Virus genome (UHGV): UHGV-0207529
Length of the DNA: 39,545 nt
Reading direction: 5' to 3' (one strand)
From: a virus
Numbering within the stretch: position 1 is the stretch's first letter; the number at the start of each line of letters is the position of its first letter. A program made the position numbers and the translations under genes. The notes below the pieces were generated by a model that saw only the letters and a list, made by a program, of their open reading frames with translations, had not been told where the DNA came from and did no database searches. Of this stretch, positions 12,657 through 34,608 are shown piece after piece.

Positions 12657-13025
12657 TCAGGCGGCTTTGATAGTCATATCATCTGAATCAAATATTCCTG
12701 ATGTATCGATATCGGTAATTCTTATTCCTTCACTACCATCCATTGGAGGCCATCCTTCCTGACCATTTCCATCATTCCAGTCGAACTCACACACAACACC
12801 ATATGCATTTAAGTCGCTTGAAATTGCTATAAGCAGAGCATGTTGCGCCAGCATGATTAATACAGCATTTAATACAGAACCGTGTTTATTGAGTCGGTAT
12901 TCAGAGTCTGACCAGAAATTATTAATCTGGTGAAGTTTTTCCTCTGTCATTAAGTCATGGTCGATTTCAATTTCTATTGATGCTTTCCAGTCGTAATCAA
13001 TGATGTATTTTTTGATGTCTGACAT
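12657..13025 (-). CDS. Hypothetical early-left protein
   Basis: 122-aa acidic ORF in the early-left operon. Confidence 0.5.
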   Translation of the reverse strand: MSDIKKYIIDYDWKASIEIEIDHDLMTEEKLHQINNFWSDSEYRLNKHGSVLNAVLIMLAQHALLIAISSDLNAYGVVCEFDWNDGNGQEGWPPMDGSEGIRITDIDTSGIFDSDDMTIKAA

Positions 13026-13042
13026 CTGTTCATATCCTCACA

Positions 13043-13070
13043 GAAAAAAATCGCCCTCACATTAGAGGGC
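13043..13070 (-). terminator. Rho-independent terminator (tL-like)
   Basis: Hairpin gccctc-acatta-gagggc followed by a T-run on the minus strand. Confidence 0.55.
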
Positions 13071-13206
13071 AAAGAAGATTTCCAATAATCAGAACAAGTC
13101 GGCTCCTGTTTAGTTACGAGCGACATTGCTCTGTGTATTCACTCGTTGGAATGAATACACAGAGCAGTGTTTATTCTGTTTTTTATGCCAAAAATAAAGG
13201 CCACCA

Positions 13207-13458
13207 TCAGGCAGCCTTGTTGTAAATGTTGCAGGTATCAAGTAAGTAATTAGATGGAGCGCCATAAATTATGAATTCATCGTTTGTCGTGTCCATCTCC
13301 ATCTCTTGGCCTATTGCCATTCTTGCGTCAGTGTCATCAGAGGCGAAGCATAAAACAGCCCACGCACCCATTGTTTTAAAAAGAACTGCAATTGGCTGTG
13401 GTTTTACTGAATTTGCGTTAGCGCGAAAATCATAAATCGCACTTTCATGAAATTCCAT
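13207..13458 (-). CDS. Hypothetical early-left protein
   Basis: 83-aa ORF immediately downstream of the N-like gene. Confidence 0.45.
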   Translation of the reverse strand: MEFHESAIYDFRANANSVKPQPIAVLFKTMGAWAVLCFASDDTDARMAIGQEMEMDTTNDEFIIYGAPSNYLLDTCNIYNKAA

Positions 13459-13466
13459 ATCTCACC

Positions 13467-13772
13467 TCAATCGTAATAAGCCGGAATTGATTTTCCGCGT
13501 TGCTTCTGGCGGCCTGAGCAAGTCACACCCATTTCACTGCGTGGTTTGCGGTAGTAAATACGGTTCTGTTTACGCTCGACTTCTTCTGCCTTCTTGCAGC
13601 GAAGGCTTCCGAGTGATGCTGCTTTATCTGCTCTGACGCAACCAGAGAGCTTTAGCGCAATTTTTCGCGCCAGTCGCTGTTCTTGCATTGCCTGTTCACG
13701 TTGAGCCTGTCTGCGTGCTCTGCGGCGATTTCTGGCGTTATCGTCAGCCAGATATGTAATGACTACTGTCAT
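13467..13772 (-). CDS. N-like antitermination protein
   Basis: N-terminal arginine-rich motif NARNRRRARRQAQREQA; first gene of the leftward operon after the pL/nutL region. Confidence 0.65.
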   Translation of the reverse strand: MTVVITYLADDNARNRRRARRQAQREQAMQEQRLARKIALKLSGCVRADKAASLGSLRCKKAEEVERKQNRIYYRKPRSEMGVTCSGRQKQRGKSIPAYYD

Positions 13773-15663: not shown

Positions 15664-16524
15664 ATGAGTAATCTTGCAACCGTAACACATTTAAGGCCTT
15701 CACAACGGCCTGTGGAGCGTCGTGTGGCAGAAGTTGAAGATGGTTATACCCGTCTTGCAAATGCCCTGTATGAAGAGCTTATCGGCGCAGATTTAACGAA
15801 AAATCAGAGCAAGGTTGCCCACGCCATATGCCGTAAAACATACGGCTACGGTAAAAAGATGGATCGCATCTCTGATAGTCAGTTAGCTCAAATTACCAGG
15901 CTGCCAAGACAGAAGGCAAACAAGGCCAAGAATGAGCTTATCGCGATGAAGGTTATCCTTCGCGAAGGTCAGCAAATCGGGCCTAACAAGAACATCGAGG
16001 AATGGCAAATAGAAGGGTGTCACTACTCTGGTGATAATGTCACTGCATTGGTGACAAAAAGTGTCACCAAAACGGTGACAGCGCTGTCACCAAAACAGGG
16101 ACACACAAAAGAAACTATTACAAAAGAAAAAAGAAATAATAAAAACACTATGTCCGAAAGTGTTCGGACGGAGTGTGAAAAATCATCTGACCGTCACGAA
16201 GAAACCGACAAGGCATTCGAGGAAATATTCTGGTGTGCAGGCATGCGGAAAGCCGGGAAGAAAAACGCGGCTTCGGCATTCAGAACACAGTTCAGGGAAT
16301 GGCGTAAAACTACCAGGGGTACGGCAAGCGAGTTTGCCACGATGCTGGCAGAAGACATCGCATGCAGGAATGGTAAGCAGTTCGGATTCGACAGGTTGTT
16401 ACCATCGAGCTACCTGAACGGTCAACGCTGGAACGACGAGAAGCCAGAAACTATTCAACCACAATCCAAACCATCATCCGCAATCACCGTATCGAAAACT
16501 GGCTACGTGTTTTTCGACAGGTGA
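15664..16524 (+). CDS. Replication initiator, lambda O-like
   Basis: N-terminal O-like domain ([14 protein letters not shown]...DLTKNQSKV...[17 protein letters not shown]); contains ori iterons. Confidence 0.8.
16039..16150. repeat. Origin of replication: three about 19-bp iterons plus AT-rich tract inside the O-like gene
   Basis: Tandem tgtcac...gtgaca dyad-containing repeats (TGTCACCAAAACGGTGACA type) followed by an A/T-rich stretch. Confidence 0.6.
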
Positions 16525-22803: not shown

Positions 22804-22878
22804 GGGTCAGTCGTATAAAGGTCATTACGGAAGGCTGTTAACCTTCTTATCGTGGTTCGAGTCCACGCTGTCCCGCCA
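22804..22878 (+). tRNA. tRNA-Asn (GTT) candidate, non-canonical D-arm
   Basis: Hand-folded: T-arm cgtgg-TTCGAGT-ccacg, anticodon stem gaagg/ccttc with loop CTGTTAA, acceptor 6/7 paired, CCA end. Coordinates approximate. Confidence 0.45.
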
Positions 22879-22883
22879 AACAT

Positions 22884-22959
22884 GCTGGTTTAGCTCCAAT
22901 GGTAGAGCGGTCGCCTTGTAAGCGAATGGGTAGCGGTTCAAGTCCGTTAACCAGCACCA
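22884..22959 (+). tRNA. tRNA-Thr (TGT) candidate
   Basis: Hand-folded: acceptor gctggtt/aaccagc, D-arm TAGCTC...GGTAGAGC, anticodon loop CTTGTAA, T-loop TTCAAGT, CCA end. Coordinates approximate. Confidence 0.6.
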
Positions 22960-32488: not shown

Positions 32489-33907
32489 ATGCCGATTCAG
32501 CAACTTCCGCTTATGAAAGGTGTCGGAAAAGACTTCCGAAACGCCGACTATATCGACTATCTGCCAGTGAATATGTTGGCTACACCCAAAGAAATCCTGA
32601 ACAGTAGCGGATATCTTCGCTCATTCCCGGGCATTGCCAAACGTTCTGATGTGAACGGTGTATCGCGCGGCGTCGAGTACAACATGGCGCAGAATGCTGT
32701 TTATCGCGTGTGTGGTGGCAAACTGTACAAAGGAGAAAGTGAAGTCGGTGATGTTGCCGGAAGTGGTCGCGTATCAATGGCACATGGTCGGACATCACAG
32801 GCGGTAGGCGTTAATGGTCAACTGGTCGAGTATCGCTATGATGGCACGGTTAAAACCGTCTCAAACTGGCCTACAGACAGCGGATTCACGCAGTATGAGT
32901 TAGGTTCTGTTCGTGACATTACTCGTTTACGTGGGCGTTATGCGTGGTCAAAAGACGGCACTGATTCATGGTTTATCACTGACCTTGAGGACGAATCGCA
33001 TCCTGACCGTTACAGTGCTCAATATCGCGCAGAATCGCAGCCGGACGGCATCATAGGTATCGGCACATGGCGAGATTTCATCGTCTGTTTTGGTTCATCG
33101 ACGATTGAATATTTCTCCCTGACTGGTGCAAACACCGTTGGTGCCGCTTTGTATGTTGCACAGCCATCACTGATGGTGCAGAAAGGAATTGCCGGGACTT
33201 ACTGTAAAACGCCGTTTGCTGATTCGTATGCGTTTATCAGCAATCCGGCAACAGGTGCGCCGTCTGTATACATCATCGGCTCCGGTCAGGTGTCACCAAT
33301 CGCCAGCGCGAGCATTGAGAAAATACTACGCTCCTACACTGCTGATGAACTGGCTGATGGCGTGATGGAGTCTCTGCGATTTGATGCGCATGAGCTGCTG
33401 ATTATTCACCTGCCGCGCCATGTCCTCGTGTACGACGCATCTTCAAGCGCCAATGGTCCGCAATGGTGCGTACTGAAAACAGGCCTGTATGACGATGTGT
33501 ACCGCGCTATCGACTTCATTTACGAAGGCAATCAGATAACGTGCGGCGATAAGCTGGAATCCGTGACCGGGAAATTGCAGTTCGATATCAGCAGCCAGTA
33601 TGGGCTACAGCAAGAACACCAGTTGTTTACACCACTCTTCAAAGCTGAGAACGCCAGATGTTTTGATCTGGAGGTGGAATCATCGACTGGTGTCGCTCAG
33701 TACGCTGACCGCCTGTTCCTCTCTGCAACCACTGACGGCATCAACTGGGGACGTGAGCAGATGATTGAGCAGAATGAACCGTTCGTTTACGACAAACGCG
33801 TTTTGTGGAAGCGAGTAGGGCGCATCAGGAAAAACATTGGATTCAAATTGCGCGTTATCACGAAGTCACCTGTCACTCTGTCAGGCTGCCAGATAAGGAT
33901 CGAGTAA
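32489..33907 (+). CDS. Tail hub protein (P22 gp10-type)
   Basis: 472 aa, same length as P22 gp10, in the conserved position. Confidence 0.8.
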
Positions 33908-34608
33908 TGGCTGATTCGAATCTCAATACACCTGTTGTGGTTCAGGCTACGCGGCTTGATGCTTCAATTTTGCCACGCAATATATTCAGCCAGTCTTACC
34001 TGCTGTATGTCATTAATCAGGGGGCTGATGTCGGCGCAATTGCCGGGAAGGCAAATCAGGCTGGTCAGGGCGCTTACGATGCTCAAGTGAAAAACGATGA
34101 ACAGGACGTCGAACTGGCAGATCACGATGCAAGAATCACCGCAAACACAAAAGCGATAAATCTCCTTGAGGTCAGGTTAACAACTGCCGAAGGGAAGATT
34201 GTCGTACTGCGTAGCGATGTTGATCACTTGCTGGGTGAGGTTGTCGATATTCAGGCGCATCTGGTCACTGTTGACCAAAGACTGGATGACGTAGAAAACG
34301 ATGTCTCTGGCATTAAGAGTGATTACGTATCGAAAACCGTAACAGAATCGCAGTCTCTTGCGTCACCGCTGGATGTAAAAACATCATATTCAGTTGATGG
34401 AATTCAGGTCGTTGGAGCAAGGCAGACAGGATGGACTGCAGCCACAGGTACGCCACTTCTTGGCTCATTCAACGCAAACCAGTCATACACTGTCGGCACT
34501 ACGTACACGCAATCCGAAGTCGCGGCTCTCGCTACAGGTTTGGAGCAGGCGCGGCAGCGTATTCTGGCGCTTGAAACAGCACTTAGATTACATGGGCTGA
34601 TTGACTGA
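33907..34608 (+). CDS. Tail needle protein (P22 gp26-type)
   Basis: 233 aa; [36 protein letters not shown]... and C-terminal RLHGLID match P22 gp26; TAATG overlap with the upstream gene. Confidence 0.85.

Follow-up and report, generated by a model that had tools for sequence, protein, structure and literature searches.

Phage transcripts carry well-known hairpins that are processed by RNase III, among them R1.1 of phage T7, the N-leader site of lambda, and lambda sib. A small RNA can also be released in this way. DicF RNA, which is encoded in the dicB operon of the Qin prophage, is reportedly excised from a polycistronic transcript by RNase III together with RNase E, an account that goes back to Faubladier et al. 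in 1990. In that system, RNase III is said to make the 3' end of the RNA and RNase E its 5' end.

In lambda, the gap between ral and ea10 encodes an Hfq-dependent small RNA (sRNA), LPR1, since renamed PreS (Silverman et al., bioRxiv 10.1101/2024.10.31.621285; Mol Cell 2025). PreS is transcribed leftward and occurs as a species of about 88 nt and a stronger, processed form of ~68 nt, with a 3' end at the terminator tL2a. It is made only in lytic growth, being absent in lysogens and appearing on induction, as expected of an RNA that depends on pL. PreS activates dnaN, represses alaS, and supports phage DNA replication (10.1101/2024.10.31.621285). It is one of the earliest examples of a phage sRNA for which reprogramming of host replication has been shown. 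The preprint makes no mention of RNase III, of a hairpin, or of how the 5' end arises, and its text leaves unexplained how PreS is excised from an antiterminated polycistronic transcript.

Gene neighbourhood and conservation of the locus

The window considered here is the whole 39,545-nt stretch of UHGV virus genome UHGV-0207529, which represents a mosaic lambdoid phage. Its leftward genes include an N-like antiterminator (13467-13772), an ORF of 83 aa that occupies the position of ral in lambda, and a homologue of ea10 (Table 1). A reading of this DNA from sequence only had placed a non-coding gap of ~180 bp between the 83-aa ORF and a tL-like terminator. The placement is right (13026-13206, 181 bp) and the gap is without a conserved ORF, but it houses an sRNA gene.

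The 181-bp gap shares 96.7% identity with lambda 33906-34085, the ral-ea10 intergenic region, where the lambda copy of the hairpin described below lies at 34007-34046. Relatives of the gap occur in Stx phages, phage 21, HK022, CUS-3, Sf101, and Salmonella phages. The 181-bp region was found in 2,234 of 5,426 complete E. coli genomes, Stx prophages included. The lambda records J02459 and NC_001416 have no annotated feature at the hairpin/PreS locus, and no Rfam family reaches its gathering threshold for either the hairpin or PreS. The best sub-threshold Rfam matches are RyhB-like (18.7 bits against a threshold of 55) and chance miRNA hairpins.

Table 1. Features of the PreS locus in the window, listed in the direction of pL transcription.
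Feature	Position	Strand	Details and basis
Upstream gene of the pL transcript, 83-aa protein of unknown function	13207..13458	-	phrog_2471; homologue of Sp5 ECs1180 / VT2-Sakai H0090
Terminator-like hairpin over the stop codon of the 83-aa ORF	13197..13218	-	AAGGCUGCC-UGAU-GGUGGCCUU, then UAUUUUU; terminator scan
A-rich single-stranded tract 5' of the hairpin	13171..13196	-	GGCAUAAAAAACAGAAUAA; sequence, fold
Extended stem-loop	13123..13170	-	22-nt arms; repeat finder, folding, relatives
Core inverted repeat	13127..13166	-	15-bp arms, 10-nt spacer; sequence, repeat finder, folds
Predicted partner cut, 5' arm	13159..13160	-	inferred from the offset of a 2-nt 3' overhang, rule of PMC6212723
Site matching the reported PreS 5' end	13131..13132	-	between 13132 and 13131, in the 3' arm of the hairpin; primers mapped to the sequence
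PreS/LPR1 ortholog, 88 nt	13044..13131	-	primers, alaS pairing numbering, alignment to lambda
PreS target-pairing (seed) region, positions 35-56	13076..13097	-	primers M1/M2, alaS duplex, alignment; identical to lambda
Intrinsic terminator tL2a	13044..13072	-	stem 13072-13051 plus U7; terminator scan, O276 annotation, preprint
Downstream gene, ea10 homologue (DUF2528)	12657..13025	-	ORF list and homology

A PreS ortholog in the gap

The extent of lambda PreS can be taken from the primers used for LPR1 cloning and in vitro transcription, which start at GAGCAATGTCGC and end at GGGCGATTTTTTA and delimit 88 nt, and from the numbering of the alaS duplex, in which +1 is the first G (10.1101/2024.10.31.621285). 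Transferred to the minus strand of the window, +1 is the G of GAGCAAUGU at 13131 and the 3' end falls at 13044, giving exactly 88 nt. When aligned, positions 1-66 are identical to lambda, seed included. Relative to lambda, two loop bases of tL2a are changed (position 67, C to U; position 69, G to A), as is the final base of the U tract, which is A in lambda and U here, so that the terminator of the window ends in U7.

Identity to lambda PreS through position 66 indicates that the supposedly non-coding gap holds a PreS ortholog. Like lambda PreS, it is read leftward, occupies the gap that precedes ea10, and ends at tL2a. The terminator that had been described as tL-like in the same reading proves to be lambda tL2a, under which name it is annotated in phage O276 and appears in the preprint, and it constitutes both the 3' end and the Hfq module of PreS. 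Judged by its sequence, the locus is thus an ortholog of a recently described lambda sRNA, and the sRNA itself is already known. Regulation of dnaN and alaS and the Hfq-bound 88- and 68-nt forms are established for lambda PreS; the ortholog of the window is presumed to behave alike. Lambda and the window share strand, terminator, hairpin, and the ea10 neighbour, and they differ in the gene upstream (ral in lambda, an ORF of Stx-phage type in the window) and in the hairpin, which is perfect in the window, whereas the lambda stem has a G·U and an A·A.

Several other identities for the RNA were considered and rejected. AgvB/AsxR (Tree 2014), the Pas sRNAs (Zhu 2026), and HnrS (Poudyal 2026) come from late or moron regions and not from the PreS locus, and the CUS-3 'boundary sequence' bsq5 is located elsewhere. 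Three short ORFs were likewise discarded. The frame of a 50-aa ORF (12974-13126) is broken by a 1-nt indel in the tL2a U tract relative to lambda and Sp5, while a 51-aa ORF (13110-13265) and a 30-aa ORF on the plus strand overlap structured RNA.

Structure of the inverted repeat

The perfect 15-bp inverted repeat that first drew attention to the gap is confirmed. Its arms, TGCTCTGTGTATTCA (13127-13141) and TGAATACACAGAGCA (13152-13166), are separated by ctcgttggaa. On minus-strand RNA, the order is 5' arm (13166-13152), loop, and 3' arm (13141-13127), and the core folds into an uninterrupted 18-bp stem with the loop CAAC. The arms can be extended to 13123-13144 and 13149-13170, which are 91% complementary with 4 nt between them, although the outer 4 bp of the extended stem lie beyond the conserved block and are absent in many relatives.

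This repeat is the longest inverted repeat that the repeat finder returns in the 39.5-kb window. Shuffling the window 30 times (loop 3-20) gave perfect inverted repeats of at most 8-11 bp, compared with the 15 bp observed; the repeat is real and non-random. Folding energies, scored against shuffled sequences, lead to the same assessment on both strands, with z = -6.9 for 101 nt of the plus strand (-39.6 kcal/mol) and z = -8.7 for 201 nt of the minus strand. For the hairpin of the window copy itself, the plus-strand fold is marginally stabler (-31.6 versus -30.3 kcal/mol for the minus strand). The minus-strand stem of the window comprises 18 bp, a mismatch, and 3 bp more, which amounts to the roughly two helical turns of an RNase III site. 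In lambda-type relatives, the stem is only about 14 bp, followed by an A·A mismatch and a further 2-3 bp.

Structural constraint among relatives

Relatives of the hairpin were drawn from IMG/VR via three anchors and from species-representative genomes, and they indicate which strand carries the structure. In 14 of 18 unique lambda-type variants, the pair 13132:13161 would be a C·A mismatch in plus-strand RNA but is G·U in minus-strand RNA, and the same holds for the pair 13142:13151 in all 18. Across the conserved block 13127-13144, 296 of 324 cells can pair on the minus strand versus 268 of 324 on the plus strand. A preference for the plus strand is seen at a single position, 13126:13167, which is not part of this block. 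The minus-strand fold is stabler in most natural copies, for example in the lambda-type copy (-24.2 versus -22.5 kcal/mol) and the junction-type copy (-21.7 versus -15.8 kcal/mol).

Changes within the stem are also informative. On the minus strand, 13132:13161 is G·U in lambda, A-U in the window, and G-C in one contig. As read from these sequences, the series is compensatory, passing through a wobble that exists on the minus strand only. Elsewhere in the stem, the mismatch 13130:13163 has been restored independently from either arm in different lineages.

A second allele of the hairpin was found in 66 viral contigs. It sits at the same place and has an unrelated upper stem, GCGCCUAUAGCAGAUU-UACG-AGUCUGCUAUGUGAGC on the minus strand. 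Its minus strand contains two G·U pairs, its loops are UACG or UGCG, and its plus-strand fold is markedly weaker; one variant has a third G·U and a plus-strand energy of only -8.0 kcal/mol. Both alleles present the PreS +1 region in the same way, with the G at +1 paired with C, the A at +2 mismatched, and positions +3 and +4 paired. Structure has thus been kept while sequence was replaced, which speaks for an RNA element rather than a promoter, since a promoter would need conserved sequence. Taken together, these comparisons favour a structure formed by the RNA of the pL (minus) strand. That the hairpin exists as two structural alleles may be new.

Origin of the PreS 5' end

Of the three roles that had been proposed for the repeat, the one that fits is the last, an RNA-processing hairpin in the pL transcript, as the PreS 5' end maps inside the 3' arm. 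Position +1 lies 5 nt within the 15-nt 3' arm and 9 nt within the extended stem, although the reported +1 may derive from read coverage and an ~88-nt band and could be off by several nt. A scan for a sigma-70-like promoter (-10/-35) before the PreS +1 gave no match. A discrete 5' end within a stable stem is unexpected from RNase E, and in combination with the lack of a promoter match this makes RNase III the most economical explanation.

The proposed sequence of events is as follows. The repeat would act as minus-strand RNA in the N-antiterminated leftward pL transcript, where it would form the 5' boundary of a compact cassette between the gene after N and ea10. Once pL transcription has traversed the 83-aa ORF, the hairpin would fold, and a double-strand-specific nuclease, most likely host RNase III, would cut at 13132|13131 in the 3' arm and at 13160|13159 in the 5' arm. 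The cut would free the 5'-monophosphate end of the 88-nt PreS, whose 3' end, fixed by tL2a, would be bound by Hfq. A second cut, probably by RNase E in the single-stranded CUAAAC loop near 13111, would then yield the abundant ~68-nt form with a free seed. Mature PreS would act as in lambda, raising dnaN, lowering alaS, and supporting lytic replication.

Confidence differs between the components of this model. It is very likely that the repeat belongs to the pL transcript as an RNA element linked to PreS. On balance, it also appears probable that the PreS 5' end is freed from the antiterminated pL transcript by processing at the hairpin, probably through RNase III cleavage. That RNase III specifically is the nuclease, a dependence that we infer, is about evenly poised. 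That the hairpin helps to generate the PreS 5' end may be new.

The predicted cuts can be compared with a rule derived from RNase III cleavage in vivo, in which the two positions between the cuts are paired, usually including a G-C pair (Altuvia et al. 2018, PMC6212723). In the window, these positions hold A-U (G·U in lambda) and C-G, in agreement with the rule. In the second allele, they hold a C·U mismatch and a U·G wobble and do not satisfy it. The short stem of most relatives (~14 bp, A·A, 2-3 bp) likewise counts against RNase III.

The hairpin resembles T7 R1.1, the N-leader site, and sib in being a stem of ~20 bp in an early phage transcript and, in most relatives, in having a mismatch beside the presumed 3'-side cut. 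It differs from these sites in its predicted function, which is release of an sRNA and not control of translation or decay. With DicF, PreS would share the arrangement of an sRNA embedded in a prophage polycistronic transcript with no promoter of its own. The two are not related in sequence, and the 3' end of PreS is an intrinsic terminator.

The predicted fold of the 88-nt PreS has its first six nt (GAGCAA) paired with UUGUUC of the seed, and GUAACUAAAC exposed in a loop. In this modelled structure, loss of about 20 nt, as in the 68-nt form, would unmask the seed.

Since the PreS 5' end falls within a conserved stem that is under strand-specific constraint, the processing model is directly testable. 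A broader version, offered tentatively and somewhat less likely than not, takes the stem-loop as the point at which RNase III enters a self-contained cassette of hairpin, sRNA, and terminator that is exchanged horizontally. One cut there would both free PreS and sever the early message. If this were true, the 5'-monophosphate PreS would prime RNase E maturation to the active 68-nt form, and the severed upstream early message would be exposed to 3' decay, as sib does for int. It would also mean that two hairpin alleles are maintained in lambdoid phages, the perfect stem of the window being a hyper-processed variant.

Cassette boundaries and mosaic junctions

The hairpin is directly upstream in all 190 evaluable PreS-seed loci, a sample that is not free of bias, since one of the scans used an anchor beside the hairpin and another was aimed at the second allele. 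The ends of homology blocks were taken as the ends of BLAST HSPs, because ungapped comparison of breakpoints is distorted by indels. In 54 of 120 loci, the block that covers PreS has its left end at 13044-13047, the end of the tL2a U tract, and in 32 of 120 it has its right end at 13165, the last base of the repeat. Block ends at the hairpin and at tL2a suggest that the minimal exchanged unit is hairpin - PreS - tL2a. Indeed, in CUS-3 this unit lies between two unrelated genes.

Although the upstream genes of relatives differ, they all finish with ...GAA TAA GC right before the hairpin. This common ending points to a module junction in the final codon and stop of the upstream gene. In phage O276 (about 1631-2610 of the locus piece) and in HK022, homology to the window stops at 13154, in the right arm, and IS903 follows. 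IS903 appears to be inserted in or beside the hairpin in both O276 and HK022.

A copy of the locus identical to lambda is also carried by 12 assemblies from unrelated organisms, mostly on low-coverage contigs and, in a few cases, on contigs of ~48.4-48.5 kb. These assemblies include Pseudoxanthomonas, Lacrimispora, Shewanella, Chromatium, Pseudomonas, Neobacillus, a Chromatiales MAG, Leeuwenhoekiella, Oceanobacillus, Kitasatospora, and Arthrobacter. Such stretches are almost certainly contaminating lambda control DNA. Consequently, the scan of representative genomes, which mostly returned lambda contamination, added little diversity.

Alternative explanations

The hairpin could instead be an intercistronic stabiliser or insulator that works without RNase III, blocking 3'-to-5' exonucleases and so protecting the upstream message (the 83-aa ORF here, ral in lambda). 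PreS would then start at or just below the base of the stem, through an RNase E-like cut downstream. Such a role would suit the start of the hairpin 2 nt after the upstream stop codon in many mosaic relatives, the shortness of the stem in most of them, and the start of the major ~68-nt PreS in a single-stranded, AU-rich loop typical of RNase E. However, the defined +1 and the 88-nt size place the 5' end within the stem, where single-strand nucleases do not cut, and the hairpin accompanies PreS whatever the upstream gene. A stabiliser is therefore considered unlikely.

An explanation at the level of DNA is improbable. It would make the repeat a quasi-palindrome without RNA function that serves as, or marks, a junction of lambdoid recombination and that was perfected by template-switch correction between its arms. 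The clustering of homology breaks at the distal end of the repeat is in keeping with this, as is IS903 in or beside the repeat in O276 and HK022, and three 'perfected' versions (that of the window, CACGGAGCA, and CACAGTGC) are what arm-templated correction would be expected to leave. Against this, a second allele with the same fold and wobble pairs confined to one strand imply selection on RNA and not on DNA symmetry, and the position of the repeat is fixed relative to the PreS 5' end.

The sequence-only reading had favoured a strong intrinsic terminator on the plus strand, possibly bidirectional, that would end a rightward antisense or small RNA opposite pL. This is now highly improbable. A T-rich stretch does follow the repeat on the plus strand (13171-13186, TTATTCTGTTTTTTAT), but it is the complement of the A-rich tract of the pL transcript, and its uninterrupted T6 is specific to the window phage, lambda having TTATTT and most relatives TTGTTT. 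Like terminators of the tL2a type, which are Rho-independent, the plus strand has a hairpin and then a T-rich stretch (UUAUUCUGUUUUUU after the extended stem). Unlike them, it has a much longer, AT-rich stem, an interrupted and unconserved U tract, and no incoming transcription unit. The stem of 20-22 bp, with a core of about 40% G+C, is atypical of a terminator, and in the tail, UUAUUCUG, the T6 run lies 9 nt from the stem base. The repeat thus lacks the G+C-rich stem and immediate U tract of a terminator, and neither its plus-strand pairing nor its U tract is conserved. The consensus terminator scan makes no plus-strand call at the repeat.

Comparison with relatives weakens the terminator further. 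At positions that form G·U on the minus strand, most of them have a mismatched plus-strand stem (C·A and U·U), and in the second allele the plus-strand fold is much weaker. The idea that an antisense or small plus-strand RNA ends here fares no better. Between 12697 and the hairpin, the plus strand has no promoter-like site and no credible ORF, and in EHEC Hfq-CRAC data the adjacent ECs1180 of Sp5 has 0-83 antisense reads versus 5,000-138,000 sense reads, so that antisense signal is essentially nil. What speaks for a terminator is the very stable plus-strand fold of the window (given above for 101 nt), a fairly conserved TTATTC motif adjoining the stem in relatives, and four changes relative to Sp5 (three in the stem, one in the T-run), all of which would improve a plus-strand terminator. 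It is the recurrence of TTATTC and the direction of these four changes that keep its small probability above zero. A non-coding gap with a backwards terminator is, on the reading preferred here, an sRNA cassette on the other strand, which is a caution for annotating phage early regions from sequence alone.

A hidden promoter in the repeat, with PreS as a primary transcript from 13131, would account for the discrete 5' end at that position but is likewise highly improbable, given the lack of a -10/-35 match, the wholly different sequence upstream of +1 in the two alleles, and the appearance of PreS on induction and its absence in lysogens, as pL dependence would predict.

Further features of the window

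On the minus strand, the terminator scan identifies two terminator-like sites that flank the repeat, 13218-13197 and 13072-13051. The first covers the stop codon of the 83-aa ORF, and the second belongs to tL2a. The Sp5 homologue of this ORF, ECs1180, ranks 22nd among the Hfq-crosslinked CDSs of EHEC Sakai, with sense reads only. Crosslinking of ECs1180 and the hairpin at 13197-13218 together suggest either that Hfq binds a second 3' end or that the gene is expressed without full induction.

Two further elements lie on the same strand near the hairpin. The tract AAAAAACAGAAUAAAC (13171-13196), just 5' of the hairpin, seems to resemble the A-R-N repeats to which the distal face of Hfq binds. 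A promoter-like site, TGGACA-16-CATAAT (10 of 12), is located at 13268-13295 within the 83-aa ORF and is directed towards the hairpin and PreS; it is missing in lambda, which has ral there.

Other parts of the window reflect its mosaic composition. A full-length match to sar RNA (84.6 bits) lies at 2373-2440 on the minus strand, which indicates a P22-type immI (ant) region alongside early-left genes of lambda/Stx type. Two adjoining tRNA genes (22804-22875 and 22884-22956, plus strand) are arranged as in Stx-type late regulatory regions. Finally, three successive inverted repeats of the type TGTCACC...GGTGACA occupy 16038-16103 and resemble origin iterons or operator-like sites.
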